64,000 nucleotides of DNA from Candidatus Shapirobacteria bacterium (GTDB taxonomy: Bacteria; Patescibacteriota; Microgenomatia; UBA12405), in assembly GCA_041665485.1 (NCBI GenBank), contig JBAYIT010000001.1:277156-341155 (forward strand), given 5' to 3'. A program made the position numbers and the translations under genes. The notes under the pieces are model-generated. The model had not been told where the DNA came from and made no database searches. It saw nothing but the letters and a program-made list of their open reading frames with translations. This document shows positions 31,970 to 49,669 of the stretch, piece by piece (the first letter of the stretch is position 1; every line of letters begins with the position of its first letter).

Positions 31970-32224
31970 TTATTCAGTTTGAATTCCCAAAAGCCAGAGA
32001 ACGGCTTCTTTGCGATAGCGGCGGTCGCCACGAGCATTGATGCGGATAGCGGGGAGCTTACCCCGTTTGCCCCAGCGCTTAACAGTTAGTTTGCTAACAC
32101 GAAGGAGATCGGCCACTTCGGCAACGGTTAAAAGATCAGGAAGATTGTCAATGGAAACTCCGTTGACTTTCTTGGCGGGTACTTGTTTCACAAGTTTATC
32201 TTGTGACATATTTTGTTCGTCCAT
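31970..32224 (-). CDS. Excisionase/MerR-type helix-turn-helix DNA-binding protein
   Basis: LLTVAEVADLLRVSKLTVKRWGKRGKLPAIRINARGDRRYRKEAVLWL (excisionase-family HTH). Confidence 0.65.
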   Translation of the reverse strand: MDEQNMSQDKLVKQVPAKKVNGVSIDNLPDLLTVAEVADLLRVSKLTVKRWGKRGKLPAIRINARGDRRYRKEAVLWLLGIQTE

Positions 32225-32445
32225 GGTGTGTATCGGGGCAGGTCTAAATAATGTTTAACTATAAAGAGTAAACCATAAAGGATGTTAGTGTGTCAATATG
32301 ATAGTCGAATGTAGAAAGTTAAAAGTTTATAAAGTTTGGGAAAGTGAGGAAAAGTACAACAAGAGAGCAATGGGGAGGGGAAGAAAGGGAGGGGAGGATA
32401 GCCGGGCCCAGGGTGTCAGAAGATGACAGTGGGCCCGGCAGGAGA

Positions 32446-32610
32446 TTAGCGGAGAAGACGTTCGAGGACAATTCCGAGAAGAATTCCGGTAATACCACCG
32501 CCAACACCGCCGATGAGCCAAGCTACATCACCTTGCAAACCGACTGCGAAAGCGACGAACCAGCCGATCAGGAGCCCCCCGAAGGCGAACCTACCAAGAT
32601 TGTTTTTCAT
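32446..32610 (-). CDS. Small glycine-zipper membrane protein, GlsB/YeaQ/YmgE-like (paralog 3 of 3)
   Basis: MKNNLGRFAFGGLLIGWFVAFAVGLQGDVAWLIGGVGGGITGILLGIVLERLLR; ATG at 32610 inside track ORF 32446..32697. Confidence 0.5.
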   Translation of the reverse strand: MKNNLGRFAFGGLLIGWFVAFAVGLQGDVAWLIGGVGGGITGILLGIVLERLLR

Positions 32611-32618
32611 TTTGTCCC

Positions 32619-32795
32619 CTATCCGTTGATGATTCGATCTACGATGACCCCAATTGCCGCTGCTACAATGCCACCGACTACGCCGGAGAGGAACCATTCC
32701 AGTCCCTTTAGGTTAACTATTGCTCCGACGATCCAGCCGATGAGAATTCCGATTTTTATGAGCTGTGTCATTCGTGGATCAGTCCCATAGTCCAT
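32619..32795 (-). CDS. Small glycine-zipper membrane protein, GlsB/YeaQ/YmgE-like (paralog 2 of 3; below track length cutoff)
   Basis: Hand-translated: MDYGTDPRMTQLIKIGILIGWIVGAIVNLKGLEWFLSGVVGGIVAAAIGVIVDRIING*; 58 aa, not in the ORF track. Confidence 0.5.
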   Translation of the reverse strand: MDYGTDPRMTQLIKIGILIGWIVGAIVNLKGLEWFLSGVVGGIVAAAIGVIVDRIING

Positions 32796-32796
32796 T

Positions 32797-33024
32797 TTAT
32801 TTTCTCCTTCCGTAGTAGAGAACTAGATTTGGTGCGAGGCCGATCATGAAACCGATGGCCAAATCGGAGTCTAACCCGACTACTAGTACAAGACCGAAGA
32901 CTAACCCAGTCAGGACGATGTACCCCACAAAGTTGACGAAAAATCCAACCTTGCGAAGTATCCAGCCGACTGCTAGGCCGGCAAAAACACCAGTGGTGGT
33001 GGGAAACAATAATAGAACTTCCAC
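32797..33024 (-). CDS. Small glycine-zipper membrane protein, GlsB/YeaQ/YmgE-like (paralog 1 of 3)
   Basis: (GTG)EVLLLFPTTTGVFAGLAVGWILRKVGFFVNFVGYIVLTGLVFGLVLVVGL...; AAGGAAG Shine-Dalgarno 7 nt upstream of GTG. Confidence 0.5.
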   Translation of the reverse strand: MEVLLLFPTTTGVFAGLAVGWILRKVGFFVNFVGYIVLTGLVFGLVLVVGLDSDLAIGFMIGLAPNLVLYYGRRK

Positions 33025-33169
33025 TCTTTATCTTCCTTTCTTCTGTTTTTTCCGCTCAAACTACAGCAGAGATCGAGGTGTGGCGAGCACACTCCGGTTT
33101 CTGCCGTAGCTTTTCCATTGCTCTCTTGTAAAAGATCCGGTTAGCTGGCCGATTGGATTGGTGCGTTTA

Positions 33170-33198
33170 CCAAAAAACCGGCCATTTCTTGGCCGGTT
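33170..33198 (-). terminator. Rho-independent terminator-like hairpin on minus strand (AACCGGCCA-loop-TGGCCGGTT followed by TTTTTTGG)
   Basis: Minus-strand reading aaccggccaagaaatggccggttttttgg; lies ~150 nt upstream of the YeaQ-like gene cluster with no annotated upstream minus-strand gene. Confidence 0.5.
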
Positions 33199-33381
33199 AT
33201 AAATCTTGAAGCGAATGAGTCAAAAAGCTTAAAGAGCTCCGATATTTGACTCTAAGGTAGCTTCAAGCAAGGCGTTGTTAGATTAACTAACTTAGCTTAC
33301 TAGAACAACCTATAATAACATGGTGGAATGGATTTGTCAACTGTTTGTTGCTAAAAAAATATTTTTTAGTAATATGGATGT

Positions 33382-33684
33382 ATGGATATATTAGGTGTTG
33401 TTGTAGAAAAATTGAGACCAAAGTCACCTGCAGAGAAGCGGATGAGTGATTGGGTTAAAGAGCAAAAGAGGAGTGGGAGAGAGGCGGTGGCCGCAGCTCA
33501 GAGGGACTTTATTGATGTAGTGACAGCGCCGATTGCTCCGCCAACAGTAGAAGAGTTAATGGATACGGAGAGGGCAATTAAAGCCGATGCAACTATTGAT
33601 GAAGTAAACAGAAGGTTAGATGCTCAAGTGGAAGTGAGGAGGCATGTGGCACAAATAAGACAAATTGTTGGTAGTAAGAAATAA
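33382..33684 (+). CDS. Hypothetical protein
   Basis: ORF with ATG start, 100 aa, charged/helical; no recognisable motif. Confidence 0.4.
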   Translation: MDILGVVVEKLRPKSPAEKRMSDWVKEQKRSGREAVAAAQRDFIDVVTAPIAPPTVEELMDTERAIKADATIDEVNRRLDAQVEVRRHVAQIRQIVGSKK

Positions 33685-33686
33685 TA

Positions 33687-33956
33687 ATGGCCGACATTAC
33701 AGTAAAACAACTTTTGGAACTTCAACGGCAACAGGCGGAAGAGTCGTATCAGGGTGTTGATGATTTGGAGATTGCCAAGGAAGAACTAGGGATAAAGGAT
33801 GGCACAGATCCTGACTTTGTGGCTTTGTGCCAAAAGTTGCAGGTAGAGATGGATGGCCAAAACGTTTTGAAGGTTATTGGCTTTGCAAGGAGGTTTGTGG
33901 ATATTTTTTTGGGGATTAAATATGAGGGAAAGCCGTTAGAAGAGAAGGTTGTCTAG
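33687..33956 (+). CDS. Hypothetical protein
   Basis: 89 aa ORF, 2 nt after preceding stop (operon-like packing). Confidence 0.4.
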   Translation: MADITVKQLLELQRQQAEESYQGVDDLEIAKEELGIKDGTDPDFVALCQKLQVEMDGQNVLKVIGFARRFVDIFLGIKYEGKPLEEKVV

Positions 33957-33963
33957 AATATTA

Positions 33964-35031
33964 ATGGTGGCTAAAGATGTTTTTGAATTGCGGATGGTTG
34001 GTGGTAAGGGTGTTGGTGAGGCAGAGTTGGCCAGTATGAAAGCTGATTTTGAGGCAGAAAGAGAGATGGTTAGAGCGATGCCGGGGGAAGGCTTAGAACC
34101 AGCAAAATTGTCGGAGGGGACAATGCGGGTATTGAGGGGTATGGAGGCCAGTGCCCGTGAATTTTTAATCGAAAAAATTCAGAGACTGGGAATTGAGGGA
34201 TATGAGCCGGACTTATTGCCTGTTCAATATGTTCGCCATGCTTCCAGCGATTTGGGTTTTTTGGGGATGAGCAGTGAGGGTGGATATGTTGATGTTTATA
34301 ACCGACTAGTGGTTGGGGTAGATCATGGTCCGTTGTCGACGATAGCTACTCTTGGTCACGAATTAAGCCATGCTGCGGCTAGAACCAGATTGGTGTTGTA
34401 TATGACCAAAGGAGTTGATGGAAAAGTTGAACTAAAAAGCGGAGCCCACGTAAAGGGTCTTAATTTACCTTCTGGCCAAAGGTGTTCGGAGATTTGTATT
34501 TTGCCCGAAGAATTGGTAGCAACTATGGATGAGGTAGATTTTATGGGCGAGCGAGTGGCCAGAGAATTACCCCAATTATACGTAAAAGAGAGAGCTAAAA
34601 TTGACGACGAGGTAAATGGTTTTTTAGTTAGAGACGCAATAGAGGAAATGAGGAGAGGTGGCTGGGAGATTCCGCCTGATTTAGATTTAGTGCCTTTTGT
34701 TCAGGAGTTGGGGGTTAGCGAAAGTGGTGATGAGTGCCTATTGTTGCTGGATGGGGTTATTATTAGAAGGTACTTATTGGGTTTGAGAATATCTGAACTG
34801 ATCGGACGTTTTCAGAAAGGGGAAGGTTTTACCAAGGAGGATTATTATCGTGTAGGTAGATGTGTTTTAGATAGGGACAGATATGTACAGGGTAATGATG
34901 TTCATCGGATGTTGGTTAAGATTTTTGGTGGTAAGGAATCAAAGGTGTTATTTACGGCTGGAGATGGTTTGGCTGATTTAGAGAAGGTACACGAGTTGGT
35001 GTCTAAGAAAGAATTGGAATATAAAATTTAA
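33964..35031 (+). CDS. Hypothetical protein with HExxH motif (possible zincin-like)
   Basis: ...VGVDHGPLSTIATLGHELSHAAARTRLVLYM...; track start 33949 is TTG overlapping previous stop, ATG at 33964 preferred. Confidence 0.45.
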   Translation: MVAKDVFELRMVGGKGVGEAELASMKADFEAEREMVRAMPGEGLEPAKLSEGTMRVLRGMEASAREFLIEKIQRLGIEGYEPDLLPVQYVRHASSDLGFLGMSSEGGYVDVYNRLVVGVDHGPLSTIATLGHELSHAAARTRLVLYMTKGVDGKVELKSGAHVKGLNLPSGQRCSEICILPEELVATMDEVDFMGERVARELPQLYVKERAKIDDEVNGFLVRDAIEEMRRGGWEIPPDLDLVPFVQELGVSESGDECLLLLDGVIIRRYLLGLRISELIGRFQKGEGFTKEDYYRVGRCVLDRDRYVQGNDVHRMLVKIFGGKESKVLFTAGDGLADLEKVHELVSKKELEYKI

Positions 35032-35082
35032 AGATTGAGGGTGCCAATAGAAGAAATTTATATTTTGCTGTAAAATGGGTTT

Positions 35083-35808
35083 ATGACAAAAACAAATCGT
35101 GGTGGAGAGGGATTTGGGGGATATGTTGATGGTTTAAATGATGTAGATATTGCTCCAGGGAGACCGGGGGCGTTAGGTGGGGCGGTTGACTATGTGATTC
35201 AGAAAGCTGGTTTGGAGGAAGTATTAGACGGGGAAATGTTGGTAACACCGGATAGACACAAGGAGGCGGTTTCGTATTTACTTGATGTTCAGAGAGGGGC
35301 GGGGCAACCGGCGGTGTTGCACTTGGTGGCGCCAACTGGTGATGATCAAGCAAATAGGAGGGGTGAACAAGGTACGGCTAGTTCGATGGCTTTACAGGTA
35401 ATAAAATTAGCTAGAAAGGTGAAGCAATGTGGGGGAGATTGGAATACTGAGAGACAATTAGTTGGCGGTTCGCCGAGACTGGAAATTGAGGTGCCGTTTG
35501 ATCCAAAGGATTTTAATACGACGTTGGGGTTAGAACTAGGTACTATTGAGGACGTGCTAGCCAACGGAGGAGTAGAAGGTAAAGATCCGATTAAAGAAAC
35601 TCGTGATTGGCAGAGAAAAATAATGTTGGATGGGAGAAATTATGCTTTGCCGCCAGAAGTTCCTGAAGGAGGATGTGTAGTGGTTGATAGATTAAAAGGT
35701 GAAAACGGAGGAAAATTGGTGGTTTTTGGCTCGGAGAGCTTTATTGGGGTGGTTGCTATTGGTGTGGTTGGAAAACCCAATCCAGAAGTGTTTTTGGTGG
35801 AGAGGTAA
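35083..35808 (+). CDS. Hypothetical protein
   Basis: 241 aa ORF, Gly-rich N-terminus (MTKTNRGGEGFGGYVDG); no recognisable family. Confidence 0.45.
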   Translation: MTKTNRGGEGFGGYVDGLNDVDIAPGRPGALGGAVDYVIQKAGLEEVLDGEMLVTPDRHKEAVSYLLDVQRGAGQPAVLHLVAPTGDDQANRRGEQGTASSMALQVIKLARKVKQCGGDWNTERQLVGGSPRLEIEVPFDPKDFNTTLGLELGTIEDVLANGGVEGKDPIKETRDWQRKIMLDGRNYALPPEVPEGGCVVVDRLKGENGGKLVVFGSESFIGVVAIGVVGKPNPEVFLVER

Positions 35809-35821
35809 AATTTAGAGCTTT

Positions 35822-36478
35822 TTATTGTTGCGCTTTGCCACCGTACCAAGCTGAGTTGTCTCTGACGTAAGCAAAGGCCTTGTCGGCAGATGTTTGATCA
35901 AGTATTCTGGTGTCTCGGCCAAGTCTTAATTCGTGAAGACGCATTTGGTTTTGAGGGTTTGCACTGGCGATTTCAGCTTCAATTTCGGTTTGTTCGTGTT
36001 GAGAACGGCGCAAAAATTGGTGAGCAAGCTCACGGGTGCATTGGACGAGAGAAGCATCAAGAGGCTGTGTGCCAGTCAAGTAATCGAGAGCTCTTTGGAA
36101 GCCGTTTCGGGAAGTAGTTAATTCTTCAACAGTTGCTTCGGGTTGTTTGATACCAAAATCTAAGATGGCAATTTCGGCTTGGAATAGTTCGGCCAATTGG
36201 GTTGGGTCTGGAGTGGGGAAGTCTGTATTTGGTAGAACCAAGTCAGATGGCATGGGGAATCTGATGTCGTGGAAAGCTATTGACCGTTCTAGAGCTTTGG
36301 AGTTAGATTCAGGGAGGGTTCCTGCTTTGGCTTGAGACAGAAGGTCCCATTCGTCTTTTAAGGTGGTGGCTCCGTAAACCGTAACTTCTTGAGCACCGAA
36401 ACAGGCAGTTTGGGCTTGGAGTAATCTGGTTTGGAGTTGATCAATAGTTGGTTGTGGAGCTTCTGGTGTTTGTGTCAT
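35822..36478 (-). CDS. Hypothetical protein
   Basis: 218 aa ORF on minus strand, convergent with upstream block. Confidence 0.4.
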   Translation of the reverse strand: MTQTPEAPQPTIDQLQTRLLQAQTACFGAQEVTVYGATTLKDEWDLLSQAKAGTLPESNSKALERSIAFHDIRFPMPSDLVLPNTDFPTPDPTQLAELFQAEIAILDFGIKQPEATVEELTTSRNGFQRALDYLTGTQPLDASLVQCTRELAHQFLRRSQHEQTEIEAEIASANPQNQMRLHELRLGRDTRILDQTSADKAFAYVRDNSAWYGGKAQQ

Positions 36479-36512
36479 ATAAGAAATATATCATAAAAAT
36501 AGTAAAAGTGAG

Positions 36513-36575
36513 GTAAAATGGATTAATGGACTACAAAATTGGTTTTTTTGGGGTGAAGAGTTGGGAGAGGGAGGC
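36513..36575 (+). pseudogene. Orphan copy 1 of the 5' end (start codon + ~17 codons) of the 2-hydroxyacid dehydrogenase gene found intact at 41574
   Basis: gtaaaatggattaatggactacaaaattggtttttttggggtgaagagttgggagagggaggc ~ 41561-41625 (MDYKIGFFGVKSWEREA); diverges afterwards. Confidence 0.7.
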
Positions 36576-36593
36576 AGGGATTAAAACGAAGTA

Positions 36594-36622
36594 TTGACAA
36601 TATGTGGTGTTGGGTATATACA
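36594..36622 (+). promoter_or_regulatory. Sigma70-like promoter for brnT copy 1 (TTGACA-N17-TATACA)
   Basis: TTGACA at 36594-36599, 17-nt spacer, TATACA 36617-36622, ATG 11 nt downstream (short leader). Confidence 0.5.
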
Positions 36623-36633
36623 TATAACAGACA

Positions 36634-36927
36634 ATGAGATTTGATATTTCAACTGATTTTGAGTGGGATGCCGGTAATGAAGACAAAAATTGGCTAAAGC
36701 ATCAAGTTTCAAAGTCGGAATGCGAAGAGATTTTTTTTGACCCAGAAAAAATCGAATTAAGAGATTCAGAGCATTCTAAAATAGAAGACAGATTAATCGT
36801 TTTGGGAAAAACCAAAAAGGAAAAATTATTGTTTGTGGTTTATACCAGAAGAAAGGACAAAATTAGAGTTATTTCGGCAAGGACGGCCGATAAAAAGGAA
36901 GAAAAATTATATGAAAAAAATGCTTAA
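36634..36927 (+). CDS. brnT: BrnT-family ribonuclease toxin (DUF497)
   Basis: MRFDISTDFEWDAGNEDKNWLKHQVSKSECEEIFFDPEKIELRDSEHSKIEDRLIVLGKTKKEKLLFVVYTRRKDKIRVISARTADKKEEKLY. Confidence 0.7.
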   Translation: MRFDISTDFEWDAGNEDKNWLKHQVSKSECEEIFFDPEKIELRDSEHSKIEDRLIVLGKTKKEKLLFVVYTRRKDKIRVISARTADKKEEKLYEKNA

Positions 36928-37171
36928 ACTACCAAAATTTAAGAACGAGGACGAAGAAAGAGATTTTTGGGCCAAAATTAGTTTGGCGGACTATTTTGAG
37001 GCTAAAGATTTTCAAAAAGTAAGCTTTCCTAATTTAAAGCCAACGTCGGAGGCAATTTCTATCAGGATACCTCAATATATGTTAGTAAGGATAAAAGAGA
37101 GAGCAAACGAGATAAACGTGCCGTATCAGACACTGATTAAAACCTATATTCAAGCGGGATTAGTGGCGTAG
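36911..37171 (+). CDS. brnA: BrnA-family antitoxin (RHH/CopG-like)
   Basis: MKKMLKLPKFKNEDEERDFWAKISLADYFE...SIRIPQYMLVRIKERANEINVPYQTLIKTYIQAGL; overlaps brnT by 17 nt. Confidence 0.65.
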   Translation: MKKMLKLPKFKNEDEERDFWAKISLADYFEAKDFQKVSFPNLKPTSEAISIRIPQYMLVRIKERANEINVPYQTLIKTYIQAGLVA

Positions 37172-37413
37172 TGTAAAATGGATTAATGGACTACAAAATT
37201 GGCTTTTTTGGAGTTAAGAGTTGGGAGAGGGAGGCGATTGAGAAAGAAATAATTAGATTGCCTTCGTTTGGGGTGGGGATATTTGAAAAAGAAGTCCAGG
37301 ATGATGTGGAATTGTGGTTGATGAGAGAGTTCTTTCCTGGTGGGAGTGTTCCTGTTTTAAGTGGGCAGGAAATGTCGGTGGCAAAAGGTGTGGAGGAGTT
37401 GTATGGATTGTAG
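37165..37413 (+). pseudogene. Orphan copy 2 of the dehydrogenase 5' end (~45 codons then divergent)
   Basis: ggcgtagtgtaaaatggattaatggactacaaaattgg...gatgtggaatt matches 41553-41705 incl. 20 nt upstream of ATG; ORF MDYKIGFFGVKSWEREAIEKEIIRLPSFGVGIFEKEVQDDVELW then unrelated tail. Confidence 0.7.
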
Positions 37414-37493
37414 CTAAGAGGCCATGTTGTTTTGTTAACTTTTTTGTCGGTTTGGTTAAAAAGGGGAGGAGGTGAAGATGTTAAAATGAGCCA

Positions 37494-38621
37494 ATGAATG
37501 GGGATGGAAATCGAGAAAAGCCACTGCAAGCACTCGATGTGGTTACATACATAAGTAGAGGGGATAGATTAGGTCTAGAAGAATTGGAAAGGTGTGGAGG
37601 TAAGAATTGGAAAGTTGTGGCGGAAGTTGTGGCTCAAATCGGCGAGGATAAAAATATCGCTTGGTTTGGGAGCGGGGCGCATGAAGTGTTAGCCGGTGTG
37701 GCCGATGAGAGAATGAGAGGTGCGGTTGCTTATGATGTTGAGCATTACAGCTTGAGGAGTGTTTCTGATCTTGATCTAATAGTGGAAGATGATGTTGATT
37801 TGGTTGGCTTAATGGGAAAGATTGCTAGTATGGGTAACTGTTGCTTATTGACGCCAGAGGCTAATGGAGTTAGCCGAAACAGATTGGAATTGACGTTGGA
37901 TAACGGGTTAATAGTAGAAATTTCGCAGGTGGAAAATATCGAGGAACAAATGAAGAAAGTGATGTTGAGGCATCAAGGAGTAGGTTTAAGGCCGGTGTTG
38001 GAAAGTGGTAGAGTGGTGGGAGTAGAGGTTCTTGATGAAACTGATTATTTGGCAGACAATCCGGCTCCGTTTCGGGTGACTTCAATAAACCCGAATTGGG
38101 AGGGGAGTATAAAGTGGGGCGATTTGAAAATGGCCTTAAAGGCAGTGGCTTGGATGGCTCAAAAAGGCGGATCAGTGAAAAGTATTGATTGGAGAGTAAT
38201 TGGCGAGAAATTAATTGGTGAGGTAGAGGGTGGCCAAATTGGAGGAGAACAAATTGACTATATTAGGCAAAAAATGGCCAAGATGATGACGGATACATAT
38301 GCTTACAATCGGTTTGATTTTTGGCAGGCAATGGTGTTTAAAGTACCAGCGGTGGCGGTTTTTAGCCCAACGATGGCTAATGGGTTTATGGACCATCCGG
38401 AATGGCAGAATGGGATTTTACTGAAACTGCTGGCAGATGAGACGAGTGGAAGTAAAATTGAGGTTGAGCCACAAGTAATGTGGGAAGGGGTGATTGGGTT
38501 GATGGTAGCAGAAGCTACCAATGATGTTGACTTGGGGGTAGTGATAAGCGAATTGGCTGAAAATTGGCCAGATAAACATCGTGTTGATTGGGGTAAAATA
38601 AGTTCTGAAGATGGCAGATAA
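37494..38621 (+). CDS. Hypothetical protein
   Basis: 375 aa ORF; AAGGGGAGGAGG upstream; no recognisable family. Confidence 0.5.
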   Translation: MNGDGNREKPLQALDVVTYISRGDRLGLEELERCGGKNWKVVAEVVAQIGEDKNIAWFGSGAHEVLAGVADERMRGAVAYDVEHYSLRSVSDLDLIVEDDVDLVGLMGKIASMGNCCLLTPEANGVSRNRLELTLDNGLIVEISQVENIEEQMKKVMLRHQGVGLRPVLESGRVVGVEVLDETDYLADNPAPFRVTSINPNWEGSIKWGDLKMALKAVAWMAQKGGSVKSIDWRVIGEKLIGEVEGGQIGGEQIDYIRQKMAKMMTDTYAYNRFDFWQAMVFKVPAVAVFSPTMANGFMDHPEWQNGILLKLLADETSGSKIEVEPQVMWEGVIGLMVAEATNDVDLGVVISELAENWPDKHRVDWGKISSEDGR

Positions 38622-39852
38622 AAAGAAATTATTTGAAATGTTGCCGGCGACGAAAGAGTACTTTTTGACTTGGTTGCCAGCGATTTTAGATAAAGTAGAT
38701 AGAGGTGAGTCGGCGCAATTGGTGCATTTACCCTATACCGGAGCAACAGCTTTAATGAAGTTTTTTTTAGAGTGTGGCGAGATGGTGGTTGATGATTGGC
38801 AAGAAAGATGTGGCCAAAAAAAGTGGTTGTGGCTGGATTTGGAAAAAGAGGTTTTTGAGGTGGCTGACTTAAGTGGAGGAGAGGTGTATTTGGAAAAAGA
38901 AGTAACGGCTAAAATTAAAGAATGGAGCTGGGGTGAACAAAAACAGGTGGTGGTGGTGATAGATGAGGCGGCAAGATTAATTGATGGCAAGCCGGAATGG
39001 AGAAAGAGACTATATGATTGGTGGCGGATTAACCCAATGAAAATAAGCTTTGTTTATATTGTGGGCAGGGAAGTGGAGCCGGAAGCAACGAAAAAAAACT
39101 TGGGTTATCTTTGGACCAGTTTTTGGCAGGGGAGAGTTTGGATGCCCTTCCAAGACAAGCAAAGCCTAAGTAACACGGTTTCGAACCAGAAAAAGTGGCA
39201 TGGAATAAAAATAAGTAATAAAGAAGTGGAGCAAGTTGCTGGGGTGTGGGGAGGCTGGCCGTGTTTGGCGAGAGTATTATTGAGGCGACTTAACGATGAA
39301 AATCGAGCAGTGGCGGTGGGGTGGTTGGATGAGCCGAATTCGGAAAAAACAATAAATGAAGTTTTGGCAGACAAAGAGATTGACGGGTATTTTGCCGATT
39401 TGTGGCAGGCGATGGCTAAAGAGAGCCAAGATAATTTTTGGAGTGAGGACAAAAGCGAGTATGTGGTAAAAACTGGATTATGGGCAAGGAATGGGGGCAA
39501 GTGGGAGCTTAAAGTGCCCTGGTTTGGGGCATATGTAAAGCAAATTCAGGCTAAGAGTAACCCGGTGGTGGGGGAGAGTAAGGGAAAAATAAAGTGGAAT
39601 GGGAAAAATTTGGCTGACTTTTTAACCGCCAATGAATTGGCGATAATGGAGTTGTTGTGGGCCAGGGGCGGCGGGGTGGTGAGCCGGGAGGAATTGGCAA
39701 AAAGAGTCTGGGGAGAAAAGATGACGGAGAAATATTCGGATTGGGCGATTGATAAAATGCTGGCTCGGTTGAGAAAAAAACTAGGCGATAGTAGCCAGCG
39801 GCGGTGGATTCAGGTGGTAAAAGGCAGAGGTGTGCGACTAAATGTCCAGTAA
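38611..39852 (+). CDS. Putative transcriptional regulator: N-terminal ATPase-like region + C-terminal OmpR/PhoB-type winged helix
   Basis: C-terminus LTANELAIMELLWARGGGVVSREELAKRVWGEKMTEKYSDWAIDKMLARLRKKLGDSSQRRWIQVVKGRGVRL (trans_reg_C-like); N-terminal VVVVIDEAARLIDG (Walker-B-like). Confidence 0.55.
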   Translation: MADKKKLFEMLPATKEYFLTWLPAILDKVDRGESAQLVHLPYTGATALMKFFLECGEMVVDDWQERCGQKKWLWLDLEKEVFEVADLSGGEVYLEKEVTAKIKEWSWGEQKQVVVVIDEAARLIDGKPEWRKRLYDWWRINPMKISFVYIVGREVEPEATKKNLGYLWTSFWQGRVWMPFQDKQSLSNTVSNQKKWHGIKISNKEVEQVAGVWGGWPCLARVLLRRLNDENRAVAVGWLDEPNSEKTINEVLADKEIDGYFADLWQAMAKESQDNFWSEDKSEYVVKTGLWARNGGKWELKVPWFGAYVKQIQAKSNPVVGESKGKIKWNGKNLADFLTANELAIMELLWARGGGVVSREELAKRVWGEKMTEKYSDWAIDKMLARLRKKLGDSSQRRWIQVVKGRGVRLNVQ

Positions 39853-39910
39853 AGGTCAAGATTGTTGGTGAATAGTGTTTTATTATAGGGCTGTTAAAGG
39901 TTAAATATAT
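39841..39910 (+). repeat. 70-bp inter-cassette repeat, copy A
   Basis: aatgtccagtaaaggtcaagattgttggtgaatagtgttttattatagggctgttaaaggttaaatata; begins at the stop of the preceding gene. Confidence 0.8.
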
Positions 39911-39911
39911 T

Positions 39912-40223
39912 ATGAGACATGATACATTAAATGCTATTGTTGGTTTTTCTATGTTTATTACTGGTGCTGTTGCGGGTACAATTTCAACAGTAGATATCGC
40001 GGTAAATAGGATGGGTTTTTTAGGTTTGCCTACCTGTAGAACTCAAGGCAATGCGTCTCTTCCAGACGTAGGATTTCCAGGGGATGCTTCTGAGCGAGGA
40101 ATTAGTGCTGATGCCAATGGAACTCGGGTAAGTTATGTTTGGAATGGAACTGAATATGAGGTTTATTTTGGTCCAGGTTGCCAGATGTCAAAACTGTCAA
40201 CTTCTCCAGCGCCTGTTAAATAG
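39912..40223 (+). CDS. Hypothetical small secreted protein (N-terminal signal/TM helix)
   Basis: MRHDTLNAIVGFSMFITGAVAGTISTVDIAVN...; 103 aa. Confidence 0.4.
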   Translation: MRHDTLNAIVGFSMFITGAVAGTISTVDIAVNRMGFLGLPTCRTQGNASLPDVGFPGDASERGISADANGTRVSYVWNGTEYEVYFGPGCQMSKLSTSPAPVK

Positions 40224-40255
40224 TGTAAAGGAAAAAATGAATACTTATCAAATGT

Positions 40256-40324
40256 CCAGTAAAGGTCAAGATTGTTAGGGAATAGTGTTTTATTATAGGG
40301 CTGTTAAAGGTTAAATATAAAAAT
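40256..40324 (+). repeat. 70-bp inter-cassette repeat, copy B
   Basis: aatgtccagtaaaggtcaagattgttagggaatagtgttttattatagggctgttaaaggttaaatata (2 mismatches vs copy A). Confidence 0.8.
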
Positions 40325-40628
40325 GAGTGAGAGAAACATTGGTTTTCAACCAGAACCCAAACTTACAACTAGAGACCGATTAGAGTCGCTAATTAATGGT
40401 GGGGATTCGGTTTGGCTGGCGTTTTTGAATTTGCTTTTTATTTTCATAACTCCGGAAGCCTATGAACAAATTGGGCCTTGTGGGTTACTTCCGGTTCTTA
40501 CCCTTACAATAGCGGTTGCTGAGGATATATCACATAATTATAGTAAGGGTTGTAGACGGATTATTGAAGAGAAGAGATCTGTGGAGGCTATGGTGAATCG
40601 TGAAATGTCCAGTAAAGGTCAAGATTAA
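40323..40628 (+). CDS. Hypothetical small membrane protein
   Basis: 101 aa; hydrophobic core VWLAFLNLLFIFITP; C-terminal MSSKGQD* is encoded by the repeat. Confidence 0.4.
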   Translation: MSERNIGFQPEPKLTTRDRLESLINGGDSVWLAFLNLLFIFITPEAYEQIGPCGLLPVLTLTIAVAEDISHNYSKGCRRIIEEKRSVEAMVNREMSSKGQD

Positions 40629-40670
40629 ATATGAATAGTATTTTAATATAGGGTATTGAAAGTTAATTAA
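40603..40670 (+). repeat. 70-bp inter-cassette repeat, copy C (degenerate)
   Basis: aatgtccagtaaaggtcaagatt-aaatatgaatagtattttaatatagggtattgaaagttaat. Confidence 0.6.
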
Positions 40671-40675
40671 GAAAA

Positions 40676-41176
40676 ATGATAAACCCAATTGAGGCTAGTT
40701 GCCAAGGTCGTCCGAAATGGTGTAAATATGAATCTGGTCCTTATCATGATTATGCTGGTTACTATTTTCATGTTTTGACAGACAGATTTATTGGGTTGAG
40801 TCGATTTATTCCCAGAAGGGAATGGGAAATAATAATTGGTGGTGCTCGTTGGGTTGACAAAAAATGGGAAGATGGAGATGGAGTTCTTTGGGGTGTTGAG
40901 CTGTGGAAAGATGTAATTGACCATGCTTGCGACGGTCTTTTTCTGCGTAGGTTTGGCAAGCAAGTCATAAGAATAGAGGTTAAGGATTTGGGGTCGGTTG
41001 GACGAAAGTTGAGTTGTCAAGATTATAACGCAGGAAATTGGTCTGGAGATGAGTGGAGTGTGGGAGACAGTGATCAAAATGACGTGGTTTGGAGCAACTA
41101 TTGGGATAAGATGCTGAAGTTGGATAACTTTAGGGACGAATTTCAAGAAGCGTTGGAGCGAAGGAGGGAGAAATGA
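40676..41176 (+). CDS. Hypothetical protein
   Basis: 166 aa ORF, Trp-rich; no recognisable family. Confidence 0.4.
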   Translation: MINPIEASCQGRPKWCKYESGPYHDYAGYYFHVLTDRFIGLSRFIPRREWEIIIGGARWVDKKWEDGDGVLWGVELWKDVIDHACDGLFLRRFGKQVIRIEVKDLGSVGRKLSCQDYNAGNWSGDEWSVGDSDQNDVVWSNYWDKMLKLDNFRDEFQEALERRREK

Positions 41177-41559
41177 GTGAGAGAATTAGGGTTGTTGACT
41201 TGCCAAGGGGGTTTACGCCAACGGATGTACCGGTTAAGGTTGTTAAGATCGGATTAGGAGATTGTGGGGTGGTGGTTGAGTGTCCGAAGGTGGGGGTGGC
41301 GGATGTGCGACTTGTGAAGGGAGATTGTGGAATAAATTGGGTTAGTTCTCCTATTTCGTATGGAGATAGGGTGGTGGGGGTGGGGGTGGACGAGGTGCCA
41401 GCAGAACAGCGAGAAGAAATGTGGAAGGGATTATTGACGAGGGCGAGGGAGGGTGGTGGGGATAGATACTTATTAAACGCTCTGCCGGAATTATTGGTTA
41501 AATTGGGATATGTTTGGGACGGAAAAACAGATTTTGAAGGAGTTAGTCTACGGCGGTAG
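41173..41559 (+). CDS. Hypothetical protein
   Basis: 128 aa ORF overlapping previous stop by 4 nt (ATGA). Confidence 0.4.
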   Translation: MSERIRVVDLPRGFTPTDVPVKVVKIGLGDCGVVVECPKVGVADVRLVKGDCGINWVSSPISYGDRVVGVGVDEVPAEQREEMWKGLLTRAREGGGDRYLLNALPELLVKLGYVWDGKTDFEGVSLRR

Positions 41560-41573
41560 TGTAAAATGAACTA

Positions 41574-42560
41574 ATGGACTACAAAATTGGTTTTTTTGGA
41601 GTGAAGAGTTGGGAGAGGGAGGCGATTGAAAGGGAAATAATCAGATTGCCTTCGTTTGGGGTGGGAATATTTGAAAAAGAGGTGCAGGACGATGTGGAAT
41701 TAGCCTCTAAATACGATGTAATTTCGACCTTCATTTATTCGAATTTAACCAAGGACGTTTTGAAAAAGTTGCCGAATTTAAAAATGGTGGCGGCTAGATC
41801 AACGGGAACAGATCATGTGGACTGTGATGAGTGCATGAAAAGGTCAATTGTGGTGAAAAATGTGCCGGAATATGGGTCTCGAACGGTGGCAGAATACGCG
41901 ATTGCCCTGATGATGGCGATAACCAAAAAAATAATTCCGGCCCACCAGTCGGTGGAGGATGGAGAATTTAGCCCGGAAGGGTTGACGGGGATTGATCTAT
42001 TTGGTAAGACTTTGGGAGTAGTGGGAGTGGGTAAGATTGGTGAGAATGTGGTTAAACTAGGGCGAGCACTGGGAATGAAAGTAGTTGGGGTGGAGAGAAA
42101 GAGAGATGAAAAGCTGGCCAAGAGATTGGGATTTAGGTATGTGGAACTAGAGGAGTGCTTAAAGATAGCAGATGTAATTAGCTTGCATGTGCCGTCAATT
42201 CCGGCAACATATCATCTGATTAACAAACAAAATATTAAATTAATGAAAAAAGGCTCGTATTTGATTAATACTTGTCGGGGGCCGGTGGTGGAATCGTCGG
42301 CTTTGGTGTGGGCCCTTAATAATAAAATTTTGGCGGGAGTGGGCTTGGATGTGGTGGAGGAGGAAAACAAAGTAGAGAGTATATCGGTGGTGATGACTGA
42401 TGAGACAAAAAAGTCGGATTTGCAGGATATCTTAAGTTTTCATTTGCTACGTGATAGAGACGATGTGGTGATGACGCCCCATAATGCTTTTAATACCAGG
42501 GAAGCAATTGGGCGGATTGTGGCAACAACGGTGGATAATATAATACAGTTTATCAAGTGA
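41574..42560 (+). CDS. D-isomer-specific 2-hydroxyacid dehydrogenase (D-lactate/phosphoglycerate dehydrogenase family)
   Basis: NAD-binding GKTLGVVGVGKIGENVVKLGRALGMKVVGVER; catalytic region ...HVPS...TCRGPVV...MTPHNAF. Confidence 0.85.
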   Translation: MDYKIGFFGVKSWEREAIEREIIRLPSFGVGIFEKEVQDDVELASKYDVISTFIYSNLTKDVLKKLPNLKMVAARSTGTDHVDCDECMKRSIVVKNVPEYGSRTVAEYAIALMMAITKKIIPAHQSVEDGEFSPEGLTGIDLFGKTLGVVGVGKIGENVVKLGRALGMKVVGVERKRDEKLAKRLGFRYVELEECLKIADVISLHVPSIPATYHLINKQNIKLMKKGSYLINTCRGPVVESSALVWALNNKILAGVGLDVVEEENKVESISVVMTDETKKSDLQDILSFHLLRDRDDVVMTPHNAFNTREAIGRIVATTVDNIIQFIK

Positions 42561-42660
42561 CAAGTTAGAAAGTTTATCAAGTGACAAGTTAGAAAGTTTA
42601 TCAAGTGACAAGTTAGAAAGTTTATCAAGTTGCAAGTTCGTCAAGTTAAAAGTTTGTCTA
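42548..42660 (+). repeat. Tandem 24-bp repeat (gtttatcaagtgacaagttagaaa) x3 perfect + degenerate copies, first copy includes the dehydrogenase stop codon
   Basis: Units at 42548, 42572, 42596, degenerate from 42620. Confidence 0.85.
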
Positions 42661-42663
42661 GTT

Positions 42664-43008
42664 GTGGGGTTTGAAAGATTTGAGGAAATTTTAAGTTGGA
42701 AAAAAGCGAGAGAGTTGAATATTGTTGTTTATAAGTTATTTGGAACTTGTAGGGATTTTTCGTTTAAAGACCAGATTTGCAGAGCTTCGGTCTCAATAAT
42801 GAATAACATTGCTGAAGGGTATGAAAGAAAAACGAACTTGGAATTCAAAAGATTTTTGTACATTTCGAAAGGTTCGTGTGGTGAAGTTAGATCAATGCTG
42901 TATTTGGCCAATGATTTGGGTTATATTGATGGTGGAATGATGGTGAATTTGTCGGATATGTGTATTGAGATTTCAAAAATGCTTTCTGGTTTGATAAAAT
43001 CTTTGTAG
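42664..43008 (+). CDS. Four-helix-bundle protein (family typically encoded inside 23S rRNA intervening sequences)
   Basis: ...VVYKLFGTCRDFSFKDQICRASVSIMNNIAEGYERKTNLEFKRFLYISKGSCGEVRSMLYLANDLGYI... Confidence 0.65.
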   Translation: MGFERFEEILSWKKARELNIVVYKLFGTCRDFSFKDQICRASVSIMNNIAEGYERKTNLEFKRFLYISKGSCGEVRSMLYLANDLGYIDGGMMVNLSDMCIEISKMLSGLIKSL

Positions 43009-43009
43009 G

Positions 43010-43049
43010 TTTACTTGATAAACTTTATAACTTTAAACTTGTAACTTAT
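43010..43049 (+). promoter_or_regulatory. Conserved AT-rich upstream element TTTACTTGATAAACTTTATAACTTT (shared with rplJ upstream region)
   Basis: gtttacttgataaactttataactttaaacttgtaacttatATG; gene-sense copy upstream of rplJ: ttttacttgataaactttataaacttttaactttataactaaacATG. Confidence 0.4.
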
Positions 43050-44090
43050 ATGAAACCAATATTGATCTGTGGCGGTGTTGGAACTAAAATGTGGCCGGAG
43101 TCGAGACCAGAGAAGCCGAAACATTTTTTGCCGTTGATTGATGATAAGTCGCTTTTTAGGTTGAATTATGAAACTTTGTTGAAAAAATTCAAGCCGGAAG
43201 AAATTTTTGTACAAACCACCGAATTTCAAAAGGGGTTAGTGAAGACTGAGGCACCAGAGATCCCCGAAAAGAATATTTTTTTGGAGCCGGAAGTAAGAAA
43301 TACTGGTCCGGCAATTGGACTGACGGCGGCCTTGTTGTCAAGAATGGGTTATGGGGATGAGCCGTTTGTATTGATTCAAGTTGATGATTTAAGAGAACCC
43401 GATGATAGATTTTTGGAAATGATAGAAGTGACGGGAAAGATGGCATTGGAGAGCGATAAATATATAACTGGTGGTTTTAAGCCAGAGAGAGTGGTGCGGG
43501 GGGTTGATTATTTGGTAAAAGGGAGACTCCTTTCTAAGGAGAATGGAATTGTGGTTTATGAAGTAGCAGATTATATAGACAGAACTGAAACGGAAAAGAT
43601 TGAGAAGTATCTTGGTTCAGAGGATTTGCTGTTGCATACAAATCACACAACGATGACCCCAAATAATTATCTGAAAATGTACCGTGAATTAAGAAGTGAT
43701 TGGTATGAACCTTTGGCGGCAATTGTTGCTGGTGGTGATGTTAATGAAAACTTTATGAAGATGACGAAGGGGCCTCAAGAAGAGGTAACACCGACGATGC
43801 ATCGAAGTGGACGGTCTATTGTGGTGGAGATACCATTTAAATGGGTGGATTTTGGAACATGGGAATCGGTAGCAATTTATCAAGAGACAAGAGATAAGAA
43901 GCCAGAGTTAAGAGCTAAGATTGAAATAGAAGCAAGTAATAATTTTGTCAGGATGAGTGATCCGAATAAGCCGGTGGCGTTGATTGGAGTCAGTGATTTA
44001 GTGGTGGTGGATACGCCAAATGGATTATTGATTTGTAAAAAAGATCAGTCGGGAAGAGTGGGTGAAGTAGTGAAAGCATTAGAAGCATGA
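43050..44090 (+). CDS. Sugar-1-phosphate nucleotidyltransferase, mannose-1-phosphate guanylyltransferase-like (paralog 1)
   Basis: MKPILICGGVGTKMWPESRPEKPKHFLPL (ICGGxGTxxWP signature), NTGPAIGL. Confidence 0.7.
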   Translation: MKPILICGGVGTKMWPESRPEKPKHFLPLIDDKSLFRLNYETLLKKFKPEEIFVQTTEFQKGLVKTEAPEIPEKNIFLEPEVRNTGPAIGLTAALLSRMGYGDEPFVLIQVDDLREPDDRFLEMIEVTGKMALESDKYITGGFKPERVVRGVDYLVKGRLLSKENGIVVYEVADYIDRTETEKIEKYLGSEDLLLHTNHTTMTPNNYLKMYRELRSDWYEPLAAIVAGGDVNENFMKMTKGPQEEVTPTMHRSGRSIVVEIPFKWVDFGTWESVAIYQETRDKKPELRAKIEIEASNNFVRMSDPNKPVALIGVSDLVVVDTPNGLLICKKDQSGRVGEVVKALEA

Positions 44091-45112
44091 ATTTAGTATT
44101 AATCTGTGGGGGGACGGGGACAAAGATGTGGCCGGAGTCAACTCCCGACAAACCAAAACAGTTTTTGCCGTTTATAGATGGCAAGTCGACTCTAAGAGTT
44201 AATTTTGAGCGGTTAGCCAAATTTGTCTATCTTAATAAAATTTGGGTACTGACGACGAAGGATTTGGCGCCGTTGGTAAAACTGGAGTTACCGGAGGTTG
44301 ATGTAGATCATTATGTGATTGAACCAGCCAGGAAAAATCATGGGCCGGCAATTGGTTTGTTATCGACAAGATTAGCCAAAATTGACCCAAATGAGCCATT
44401 TATGATTGTCCAAACGGATGTAATTCGGGAGCCAGAAACTGCTTTTCGGGAGATGGTGATGTTGGCCGAAGAGGTGGTTAATCGAACCGGTAAATTGATT
44501 ACTGCTGGTTATAGGGCTAAAGAAATGGTGGCAGGGGTAGATTATATGGAAATTGAGGAATTGAAAAGTAATCATCATGTGACTTATGGGAAGGTTAAAA
44601 AGTGGTTAACTAGGGACAAAGTTGTGGAAATTAAACGGGCAGTAAAATTGGGAAAGGCCTATGTTCATGCGACCCATATTTGTTGGAGGCCAGGGTTGAT
44701 GTTGGAAGCAATAAAAGAACTTAAACCGGATTGGTGGAATTGTCTTAAAGACGTTTTGGAGGCAGAAAGCCAGTATCTAAAGATGGAGCCGGGGTCGATT
44801 GAAAATGAAATTATTAGTCACAAAATTAAGGGAGGTTATGTGATAGAAATGCCATTTGAATGGCATGACTTGGGGACGTGGGCGTCTGTGGCAATTTATC
44901 AAGAGACAAGAGATAAGAAGCCAGAGTTAAGAGCTAAGATTGAAATAGAAGCAAATAATAATTTTGTTCGGGTGAGTGATGAAAAAAAGCCAGTGGCATT
45001 GATTGGAGTCAGTGATTTGGTGGTGGTGGATACGCCAAATGGATTATTGATTTGTAAAAAAGATCAGAGCGGGAGAGTGGGGGAGGTGGTGAAGGAGTTG
45101 GAAGGATTATAA
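44087..45112 (+). CDS. Sugar-1-phosphate nucleotidyltransferase, mannose-1-phosphate guanylyltransferase-like (paralog 2)
   Basis: MNLVLICGGTGTKMWPESTPDKPKQFLPF; last ~75 aa almost identical to paralog 1. Confidence 0.7.
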   Translation: MNLVLICGGTGTKMWPESTPDKPKQFLPFIDGKSTLRVNFERLAKFVYLNKIWVLTTKDLAPLVKLELPEVDVDHYVIEPARKNHGPAIGLLSTRLAKIDPNEPFMIVQTDVIREPETAFREMVMLAEEVVNRTGKLITAGYRAKEMVAGVDYMEIEELKSNHHVTYGKVKKWLTRDKVVEIKRAVKLGKAYVHATHICWRPGLMLEAIKELKPDWWNCLKDVLEAESQYLKMEPGSIENEIISHKIKGGYVIEMPFEWHDLGTWASVAIYQETRDKKPELRAKIEIEANNNFVRVSDEKKPVALIGVSDLVVVDTPNGLLICKKDQSGRVGEVVKELEGL

Positions 45113-45209
45113 TGAATTATGAAAGATAGAAATCGGGTAAGTAAATTTATTTTGAATAAAGTGGAATTAAGGAAATTAGTGGCCGGAATAAAAGAGTTTA
45201 GAAAGTCGT

Positions 45210-46082
45210 TTAAGTTTGATTTTTGATTAGGTGGGGAAGGGAGGCGGAAATAAGTATTAGTAAACCGCCGATAATAATGCCTAAATTTAGCGACTCATTA
45301 AAAAATAAAATGCCAAAAAAGACACCAAACAAAATTTCGGCCAGGCCGATTAGACTGCCAATGCTGGCATCGAAGTGCCGATAGCCTTCAATGGCGGCCC
45401 AGTTAGCCAAGAGCATACTTGAGGCATAACCGAGTTGGGCCAGCCAAGAAATTGGTTGATTAAGTGATGGTAGTGGGTCGTGAAAAAGTGAACTTAGAAA
45501 ACCATTGGCAATGACTTGGATGACAAGATAACCGATCATGATTTGAAATTCAGGATAACCGCCAACTAGTTTTCTGGGAATAATAACGGTGGCGCTACCC
45601 ATAAGCCCGGCAAGAATAGTAAGAATGGCAGGAAGAATTTGAGACGGGGAGAGATTAAGGTGATAAATAAAGAGCAGGCCAACAACAGCAAGAAGGAGGT
45701 TGAAAATTTTTGTTGGAGTTAATTTTTCTTGGAAGACTATTTTGCCAATAAAATAGCCACCAATAACGAGAGCGGCGTAAAAAAAGAGAGTAGCAGTGCC
45801 AATACTTAGGTGTTTAAAGCCAAAAAAATAGGGTGCTTGGTTGAGGCCACCGGCCATGGCGATAAGGGCAAGCCAGGGGAGATCTCTTTTAACTAGGGGT
45901 TTAAAAATATGAAATTTAAGATTAATAAGGATAATGACTATTAGTAGAAATAGACCTCGAGTCCAGGCCTGGGAAAACTCGCCAAAAGATGAGGACATAA
46001 GGCGGGACCAGATGCCATAGGTGCCGTAGAAAAATGCCGAAGTTAGAATAAGACGGGCTCCTTTATTTTGATTCATGGCCAA
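45210..46082 (-). CDS. EamA/DMT-family transporter (10-TM drug/metabolite transporter)
   Basis: 290 aa, ~10 hydrophobic helices in two EamA-like halves. Confidence 0.7.
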   Translation of the reverse strand: MAMNQNKGARLILTSAFFYGTYGIWSRLMSSSFGEFSQAWTRGLFLLIVIILINLKFHIFKPLVKRDLPWLALIAMAGGLNQAPYFFGFKHLSIGTATLFFYAALVIGGYFIGKIVFQEKLTPTKIFNLLLAVVGLLFIYHLNLSPSQILPAILTILAGLMGSATVIIPRKLVGGYPEFQIMIGYLVIQVIANGFLSSLFHDPLPSLNQPISWLAQLGYASSMLLANWAAIEGYRHFDASIGSLIGLAEILFGVFFGILFFNESLNLGIIIGGLLILISASLPHLIKNQT

Positions 46083-49156: not shown

Positions 49157-49669
49157 TTATTGTTTTTTGCTCTCAAGGGCTTTTAGTGTTAGAACCAATT
49201 GGGTTTGGTTGAAACGGAGAGCGTAGGAAAGGCGAAGTAGCGGGTTTTGCAAACCGCCAAGAAGCTGAGAGATAAGAGCGGATTTTGAAGGTAGGGAAAG
49301 AAATTTCTTAAGCTCGTCGGCAAGAAGAAGTTTTTGATTGTAGATGCCGTATTTGAAACTGGTTTTTTCTTTGTCTTTGTTAACAGTTTCAATTTCTTTG
49401 AGAGGAGCAATTTCATCCTGATCACAGTAAACAATGGCAGTGGGGCCGGTGAGAGCTTCCGGCATTTGAATACCAATTTTTGCTAGTGCTCTGGTTAAAA
49501 GGGTGTTTTTGACGACAGTAATCTCACCGCCGACTTGTCTGACTTTAGCGCGAAGATCACTGACTTGGCCGGCAGTTAGGCCTTGATATTGAAGAAGAGC
49601 GGCTGATTTGGTGGCTTCAAGCCGTTTGGTAACTTCTTTAAGTTGTTGAATGTTTTTAGAATTTGGCAT
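49157..49669 (-). CDS. rplJ: 50S ribosomal protein L10
   Basis: MPNSKNIQQLKEVTKRLEATKSAALLQYQGLTAGQVSDLRAKVRQVGGEITVVKNTLL. Confidence 0.9.
   Translation of the reverse strand: MPNSKNIQQLKEVTKRLEATKSAALLQYQGLTAGQVSDLRAKVRQVGGEITVVKNTLLTRALAKIGIQMPEALTGPTAIVYCDQDEIAPLKEIETVNKDKEKTSFKYGIYNQKLLLADELKKFLSLPSKSALISQLLGGLQNPLLRLSYALRFNQTQLVLTLKALESKKQ

Follow-up and report, generated by a model that had tools for sequence, protein, structure and literature searches.

How does a series of small, unrelated genes in one bacterial genome come to stand behind the same short sequence, and what is that sequence for? The question is raised by a 64,000-nucleotide (nt) stretch from a Candidatus Shapirobacteria bacterium (assembly GCA_041665485.1, contig JBAYIT010000001.1, positions 277,156 to 341,155 of the forward strand; hereafter the window), in which a repeated unit of about 70 nt directly precedes an array of small open reading frames (ORFs). 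The host is represented by a metagenome-assembled genome (MAG) of the Microgenomates within the candidate phyla radiation (CPR), and the array has cellular neighbours including RuvAB, the ribosomal proteins L10/L12 and CTP synthase. The array follows the gene for a 413-aa protein that joins an Orc1/Cdc6-like AAA+ domain to a C-terminal winged helix of the OmpR/PhoB type. We suggest that the unit is a duplicated regulatory cassette, a putative activator-dependent promoter, which would double as a stretch of homology for recombination, and we give this reading slightly better than an even chance.

Three direct copies of the unit are present on the plus strand, at 39840-39909 (unit A), 40250-40319 (unit B) and 40603-40672 (unit C), the full modules comprising about 72 bases (39840-39911, 40250-40322 and 40603-40675). 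A first-pass annotation of the window had described three 70-bp copies, two of them about 97% identical and the third degenerate, and this description holds: over the 70-nt unit the identity to A is 97% for B and 76% for C, and a 23-nt core, AATGTCCAGTAAAGGTCAAGATT, is exact in all three (39841-39863, 40251-40273 and 40604-40626). Elsewhere in the 64-kb window no match to AATGTCCAGTAAAGGTCAAGATT was found at up to three mismatches, the next-best site carrying seven, and 100 shuffles gave none either. The core is followed by a second block (39870-39890, 40280-40300 and 40633-40653) that contains a -10-like hexamer, TATTAT in A (39881-39886) and B (40291-40296) and TAATAT in C (40644-40649), and in unit A a variable, AT-rich leader runs from there to the ATG at 39912. 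The 70-nt unit ends two to three nt before the ATG of the 103-, 101- and 166-aa ORFs, within the range of about 2-10 nt that the first-pass annotation had given. Its further statement that every copy starts at or overlaps the preceding stop codon applies to A and C only. Unit A holds the last three codons and the stop (TAA, 39850-39852) of the upstream 413-aa ORF, and unit C, correctly recognized as in frame, gives the 101-aa ORF its last eight codons (...REMSSKGQD) and its stop (TAA, 40626-40628), whereas unit B begins 27 nt past the stop of the 103-aa ORF (40221-40223). The boxes, as we call the cores in the following, are spaced by 353-410 bp, all in direct orientation and with coding sequence in between.

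The genes behind the units are all encoded on the plus strand. The first, o103 (39912-40223; 103 aa), is a fast-evolving orphan with a hydrophobic N-terminal segment in the hydropathy profile. The second, o101 (40323-40628; 101 aa), is also an orphan, and the third unit precedes not one gene but a two-gene cassette (40676-41559), in which o166 (40676-41176) and o128 (41173-41559) overlap in an ATGA (41173-41176). The claim that each small gene has its own upstream copy is therefore right for o103, o101 and o166 and has to be extended by o128, which shares the copy of o166. No similarity was found among the four small proteins, and a diverged tandem gene duplication was rejected because these proteins are unrelated to each other. 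For o166 only two database relatives exist, and for the protein relative P0010 no contig placement was found.

Further lineages carrying the locus were collected by core scans of public collections and by following homologues of the cassette proteins. In the window the order is regulator gene (the gene of the 413-aa protein), unit, o103, unit, o101, unit and o166/o128, with three units. In a contig from JGI (L007) the regulator gene is followed by a unit, an o103 orthologue with 49% amino acid identity, a second unit and a different gene, X, giving at least two units, while in a contig from ENA (L018) a single unit separates the regulator gene from orthologues of o166 (71% amino acid identity) and o128, and o103 and o101 are missing. 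A unit stands at every junction in all three lineages, and the cassettes differ in number and identity, so that the variation in copy number which an array of cassettes would lead one to look for is real (three, at least two and one). Gene X shares its first 21 nt with o101 and is unrelated to it thereafter (shuffle z = 0.0 once the first eight residues are left out). The first 13 nt of o101 (40323-40335) and o128 (41173-41185) are likewise common to both, ATGAGTGAGAGAA (MSER...), and the replacement gene in L007 starts with ATGCGTGAGAGAG (MRER...); the homology shared by the cassettes may, to judge from these starts, reach a few codons into the genes.

The six units of the three lineages (A, B and C of the window, two of L007 and one of L018) were aligned and show no indels from the core through TATAGGG. 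The 23-mer is unchanged in 15 of the 15 pairwise comparisons and is followed by seven nt that show free variation; hardly any changes then occur in the block GAATnGTnTTTTAnTATAGGG, after which a tail of variable sequence leads up to the ATG, its portion next to the ribosome-binding site (RBS) being the least conserved part of the unit. Stop codons in all three frames, which had appeared to be a designed feature of the unit, are present in the window and L018 units and not in those of L007, and the idea was dropped. How unusual the conservation of the core is can be judged from its surroundings: in a comparison of the window with L007, two copies of the 24-nt core agree at 48 of 48 positions (100%), while identity is 92% in the 3' end of the regulator gene (83% at third codon positions), about 80% over the remainder of the unit and 66%, without codon-position bias, in o103. 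At 83% per neutral site, the chance of 48 identities in 48 positions is about 1e-4.

The comparison also bears on the genes and on the relation of the copies to one another. The o103 orthologues keep the reading frame, and their nucleotide identity is 68/66/62% at the first, second and third codon positions; codon positions that have diverged equally indicate very fast or diversifying evolution. No other homologue of o103 was found among 5.8 billion proteins. Its hydrophobic N-terminus and fast evolution would fit a role at the surface or in interaction with a host, which is speculation. The pair o166 (82/88/79%) and o128 (88/95/73%) shows a coding signature when the window is compared with L018. 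Outside the core, copies within one genome differ at 2 of 45 positions (A and B of the window) and 5 of 45 (the two units of L007), whereas orthologous copies differ at 8 and 11 of 45; the closer similarity within genomes points to gene conversion or recent duplication between units. The single unit of L018 is a mosaic of A/B-like and C-like positions, as might be expected of a recombinant or of an ancestral form.

Searches beyond the window place the unit at this locus only. The 23-mer core has no match in the GTDB species genomes and none in viral contigs, and of two matches in metagenome contigs one (L008) is a chance match inside an aldehyde-oxidoreductase gene. Copies of the unit are thus confined to this locus within the window and to orthologous loci in the public scans. 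No inverted repeats or dyad symmetry were found in the units, and a repeat of the MITE (miniature inverted-repeat transposable element) or REP (repetitive extragenic palindromic) type was rejected, since there are no inverted repeats or hairpins and the copies are not dispersed.

The anatomy of the unit resembles that of a promoter. Counted on the alignment, exactly 17 nt separate the end of the core from TATTAT (TAATAT in unit C) in all six units, and 25-28 nt separate the hexamer from the ATG. Where a -35 element should lie, the core contributes its final six bases, AAGATT, a sequence unlike a -35 element, so a promoter at this site would need an activator. TATTATAGG has only one other site in the window, and there it forms the -10 of a canonical extended promoter, TTGACA-17-TATTAT with an upstream TG, which makes TATTAT a credible -10 in this genome. 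The first-pass annotation had considered a duplicated promoter/RBS module; the promoter part of that idea fits the anatomy best (box, 17 nt, TATTAT), and the RBS part falls with the poorly conserved RBS-proximal tail. The extended promoter just mentioned is itself worth recording: it lies within 33170-33345 on the minus strand, an intrinsic terminator (AACCGGCCaagaaatGGCCGGTTTTTT) comes about 130 nt after it, and the segment, with no ORF between promoter and terminator and no Rfam family, is a candidate small RNA by its sequence features.

Two tandem 11-nt half-sites, AAATGTCCAGT and AAAGGTCAAGA, may be discerned in the core; they match at 8 of 11 positions, a suggestive value that is equalled at only 0.3% of the window positions. 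Expressed as TGTCC-N6-GGTCA in two 11-nt units, the box may be compared with the PHO box of Escherichia coli, TGTCA-N6-TGTCA, which replaces the -35 element in the activator-dependent promoters of PhoB. The box of the array likewise takes the place of a missing -35 element, in all six units, and an OmpR/PhoB winged helix is encoded next door. Proteins of the OmpR/PhoB family bind tandem direct repeats of 7 bp with a 4-bp spacer, that is, 11-nt units (PMC4832192, PMC2275107, PMC4415409). Shortening of the 11-nt unit abolishes binding of the PhoP type (PMC2275107).

The candidate regulator is the 413-aa protein (38611-39852, plus strand). Its C-terminus matches Pfam Trans_reg_C (aa 338-409, E = 2e-14) and, among NCBIfam models, the effector domains of RpaB, CpxR, PhoB and PhoP. 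Searched against the PDB, a profile of its family matched CpxR, PhoB and others with its C-terminal part and Cdc6/Orc1 (2qby_A, E = 5e-8) over positions 4-214; a Foldseek search with the predicted model (pLDDT 70) gave ORC2 (1w5t/1w5s), 2qby (Orc1/Cdc6) and RuvB as best matches. The combination of AAA+ and winged helix defines a small family, with nine matches among 5.8 billion proteins, mostly at 22-30% identity, and no viral relative was found. Unlike PhoB and PhoP, the 413-aa protein has no receiver domain and carries the Orc1/Cdc6-like AAA+ part instead; it is not a response regulator, and nothing links the locus to phosphate. Upstream, its start overlaps by 11 nt the first gene of the segment, an orphan gene for a 375-aa protein (37494-38621, plus strand), and the two genes belong to the same operon. 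The 375-aa protein has a sub-threshold Pfam match, MdcG nucleotidyltransferase-like (E = 0.028), and one true homologue (P0013, 67% identity) among 1.84 billion representatives; its AlphaFold model, with a mean pLDDT of 40, was unusable and kept out of the fold search. The idea that it is a conserved partner of the regulator was discarded, since the 379-aa gene that precedes the homologue in L009 shows no homology with it.

Taken together, the following mechanism is proposed. Read from 5' to 3', the unit would consist of an invariant 23-bp protein-binding box, a 17-nt spacer, a -10 hexamer and an unstructured leader of 25-28 nt up to the ATG. An activator bound over and upstream of the -35 position would be needed for transcription, with predicted starts some 7 nt past the hexamer, around 39893, 40303 and 40656, and the likeliest activator would be the AAA+/winged-helix protein whose gene ends in unit A. 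Each small-gene unit (o103, o101 and o166 with o128) would then own a copy of the module, and all would be co-regulated. At the same time, homologous recombination or gene conversion between the near-identical direct copies would homogenize the units within a genome and would delete, insert or replace the genes between them, giving rise to arrays of one, at least two and three units.

Several observations weigh against this reading, and they deserve to be considered together. Promoter activity and its orientation, the start site, binding by this particular protein and the route of recombination are points that we infer. A strict sigma-70 scan returned no plus-strand promoter in the units, and it returned a candidate on the minus strand of unit B, TTTATA-18-TATAAT, the ATTATA of the unit being TATAAT on the other strand. 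The half-site periodicity of the core is weak, offsets of 10 and 11 tie, and the 8/11 match was spotted after the fact. No box was found upstream of the regulator operon or elsewhere in the window, so that no wider regulon is visible. As for the protein, its Walker A motif is degenerate and lacks the lysine (PYTGATAL, compared with PGxGK in the family), and its distant homologues (22-30% identity) lie in differing contexts with no small-ORF arrays or comparable repeats; the family therefore gives no independent support for a link between box and regulator. In the lineage of L007 and L019, moreover, an insertion sequence (IS)-like element breaks the regulator gene near codon 262, and both boxes are nevertheless perfect, which means either that the insertion is recent or that the box is independent of this protein. 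Finally, the lineages number three only, two of them represented by contigs of less than 1.4 kb, and their differences may reflect either gain or loss of cassettes.

The IS-like element itself has terminal inverted repeats (TGACCCACCTACAC/GTGTAGGTGGGTCA) and a duplicated target of about GGTATTTTGC, and the sequences concerned lie at 1-156 and 2040-2178 of L019 and 1367-1240 (minus strand) of L007. A palindrome of about 30 nt lies near its end, and in the same lineage a second copy of the element end directly precedes the 375-aa homologue.

Could the unit act on RNA or on translation instead, as a processing or stability site, as an antisense promoter or target, or as a leader peptide that couples translation? 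Read-through of the regulator mRNA would transcribe the unit, and no terminator-like site was found in the units or between the genes of the array. In addition, every copy contains an ATG-initiated mini-ORF (ATG TCC AGT AAA GGT CAA GAT...), which the first-pass annotation had taken to encode a mini-peptide, MSSKGQD, and five of the six units have a perfect TATAAT on the minus strand. However, the mini-ORF has nine, eight and seven codons in the window and 20 in L007, where the frame stays open throughout the second unit; neither a consistent Shine-Dalgarno sequence nor any other consistent ribosome-binding site precedes it, and the upstream ORF runs into it in units A and C. A length that varies and a sequence that is invariant at every codon position argue for constraint on the nucleotides and not on a peptide, and the mini-peptide was rejected for its unconserved length. 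A minus-strand promoter, in turn, would put its -35 element into the non-conserved tail. There is no conserved secondary structure either: RNA folds of the units are less structured than those of shuffled sequences (z = +0.1 to +1.5), and Rfam gave no match at E <= 1 in the region and none at the gathering score in the whole window. A terminator or a riboswitch or other known cis-regulatory RNA was rejected on the same grounds, and we consider an action of the unit at the RNA level unlikely.

A second alternative takes the box for a site-specific recombination site, comparable to att or attC and used by some recombinase, and the promoter part as incidental. The locus has much that would suit it. 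Number and identity of the cassettes vary with a unit at each junction, the homology to L007 breaks off sharply 21 nt into the second ORF, and an invariant core of 23 bp has the right size for a recombinase. The location would suit as well. The array segment (37314-41555, about 4.2-4.4 kb) lies between two directly repeated 146-nt copies of one sequence, 92% identical and spaced by 4388 nt, of which the right one (41556-41701, plus strand) contains the true start of a 2-hydroxyacid dehydrogenase gene (41574-42560) and the left one (37168-37313, plus strand) duplicates the 5' end of that gene. About 9.4 kb of mostly orphan genes (32209-41574) separate the dehydrogenase gene of the window from a conserved HTH_17/MerR-like gene encoded on the minus strand; in relatives the same interval comprises about 160 nt (L016, 452-615) or one gene for a 592-aa repeat protein (L017, 7941-9965). 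The array therefore sits in a strain-variable insertion hot-spot, one with repeated duplication of the dehydrogenase 5' end.

Yet the machinery that such a site calls for is not in evidence. In precomputed Pfam annotations of the called genes around the regulator gene, covering about 10 kb on its upstream and 10 kb on its downstream side, there is no domain of a tyrosine or serine recombinase, an integrase or a transposase, and Pfam, NCBIfam, PHROGs and PADLOC searches with the segment proteins detected none. The box lacks dyad symmetry, inverted repeats and a hairpin, the minimum free energy of single-stranded DNA folds on either strand being -0.1 to -1.4 kcal/mol, weaker than in shuffled sequences. 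Besides the box, the -10-like block at a fixed distance from the start codons is conserved as well, which would be superfluous for recombination, and homologous exchange would lead one to expect the concerted evolution seen in whole units. We therefore regard a dedicated recombination site as quite improbable. The likeness to integrons that the first-pass annotation had pointed out is of the same mixed kind. Both consist of small, unrelated genes, mostly orphans, that all point the same way, with a repeated element at their junctions and a content that varies among relatives, and the idea of a cassette array thus survives in its logic. Integron cassettes are usually promoterless and carry attC at their 3' end, whereas the element of the array is promoter-like and lies 5' of each gene; it is conserved in sequence, where attC is conserved in hairpin structure. 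Membership among the integrons fails on the integrase and on the attC hairpin, and array logic alone is shared.

A third alternative concerns the AAA+ half of the 413-aa protein. The boxes might be origin-recognition, iteron or partition sites of an integrated and possibly defective replicon, since the adjacent protein resembles Orc1/Cdc6 in its N-terminal half, archaeal orc1/cdc6 genes typically adjoin the repeated origin boxes bound by their products, and a 4.4-kb segment between 146-nt direct repeats looks like an inserted element. Against this stand the arrangement of the boxes, which are direct, 353-410 bp apart with coding sequence between them and at a fixed distance to hexamer and start codon, and the presence of one box only in L018. 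The DNA-binding domain is of the OmpR/PhoB transcription-factor type and not the C-terminal winged helix of Cdc6, and the degenerate Walker A motif counts here too. A phage or plasmid origin of the segment was rejected, as blastn gave no match in either collection and PHROGs and viral contigs were also negative. Cumulative GC skew does not change locally at the array. We hold sites of a replicon to be distinctly improbable.

More speculative still is the thought that the AAA+ protein and the boxes form an integrase-free platform on which CPR bacteria acquire and express cassettes, and on which the AAA+ protein, besides turning on the individual cassettes, would mark the boxes for recombination or local replication; it is a highly doubtful proposal. 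If it were true, the platform would actively bring orphan genes into the hot-spot, remove them or exchange them, and would correspond in function to an integron assembled from unrelated components. Last, that the repeats are functionless remnants of a recent segmental duplication, or an assembly artefact, is disfavoured and very improbable, for although A and B are 97% identical, as a recent duplication would leave them, and the short-read Logan contigs L002, L005 and L006 break inside units, which is normal for an assembler at a repeat and was not counted as variation, independent assemblies of ENA, JGI and Logan data all show this arrangement, no paralogy links the flanking genes, and between lineages the core stays unchanged where the genes beside it retain only 66-92% identity.

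If the duplicated regulatory cassette is preferred, two types of repeated promoter are its natural points of comparison. Promoter-early stem-loop (PeSL) cassettes of T4-type phages are repeated intergenic modules of about 70-100 bp that reach from an upstream stop to the next start codon (PMC2839356; PMC4122927). They carry an early promoter, stand before small ORFans in hyperplastic regions, and border insertions, deletions and replacements between close relatives (PMC2839356; PMC4122927); an ORFan that is flanked by two modules in one genome can correspond to a single, possibly chimeric module in another, and excised mini-circles have been demonstrated for PeSLs (PMC2839356). The unit of the array similarly spans the distance from stop to start before ORFans in a plastic region, apart from unit B, which begins 27 nt past the stop, and several units in the window against one mosaic unit in L018 mirror the case of two modules against one chimeric module. 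However, the array lies on a cellular CPR chromosome and has no similarity to phages, whereas PeSLs belong to phage genomes. The unit has neither stem-loop nor terminator and no sequence similarity to PeSLs; where a PeSL has a sigma-70 -35 element it has AAGATT within the invariant 23-bp box, together with the -10-like TATTAT; and three copies at one locus compare with about 50 per phage genome. By its arrangement, the PeSL appears to be the closest functional analogue of the unit. Putative mobile promoters (PMPs) are upstream regions of 50-100 nt with at least 80% identity that precede non-homologous genes in one genome (PMC3488235). Units A and B fall under this definition (97% over 70 nt, unrelated downstream genes), and unit C with 76% lies just below it. 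In contrast to PMPs, which are defined by similarity and usually dispersed, the copies of the array are adjacent to each other and beside a candidate regulator, and turnover of cassettes is seen.

Some further features of the surroundings may be recorded. At 36513-36578 there is a third, shorter copy of the dehydrogenase start, so placed that a BrnT/CopG toxin-antitoxin pair is enclosed much as the array is by the two longer copies, and the three duplicated starts comprise about 15 nt of upstream sequence and the first 50-128 nt of the coding sequence; a 75-aa ORF (37186-37413) is a stranded dehydrogenase N-terminus. The pattern looks like serial insertions at one site, each of which would have regenerated the start of the dehydrogenase gene. 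PADLOC models of defence systems found no match on the segment. Strand asymmetry is very pronounced: in the profile from 33000 to 46000 the GC skew is +0.2 to +0.6 in every 400-nt window, and nearly all genes lie on the plus strand. Between the dehydrogenase and 23S-IVP genes, four to five tandem 24-nt repeats, AGTTTATCAAGTGACAAGTTAGAA, occupy 42546-42654, and a related motif, TACTTGATAAACTTTATAAC, is common to the upstream regions of the genes that start at 43050 (plus strand; motif at 43013-43041) and 49669 (minus strand; 49157-49669); they may represent another repeated regulatory motif. Two adjacent genes (43050-44090 and 44087-45112) are paralogous NTP-transferases of the ManC-like type with shared segments that are 86% identical, the second of which is called differently in L004 (328 aa, no Pfam match on record). 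A giant ORF (54-29645) encodes 9,863 aa in the window and 11,461 aa as called on the full 411-kb contig.

The principle that the array would illustrate is not new, as repeated or mobile promoters and shuffling of the PeSL type are already known. Its interest lies in the host. CPR bacteria have small genomes and are not culturable alone, and almost nothing is known about their promoters, their regulators or the way in which their lineages acquire genes of their own. What the locus offers is a candidate 23-bp operator accompanied by a -10-like hexamer, a candidate activator of unusual build, and related lineages in which the number of cassettes differs naturally (one, at least two and three), and the cassettes, whose cargo consists of orphans, would provide a possible mechanism for the turnover of orphan genes in a CPR bacterium. 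If confirmed, the regulatory-cassette shuffling of T4-type phages would also take place in a cellular chromosome, and box and 413-aa protein would be among the first regulator-operator pairs for this phylum.

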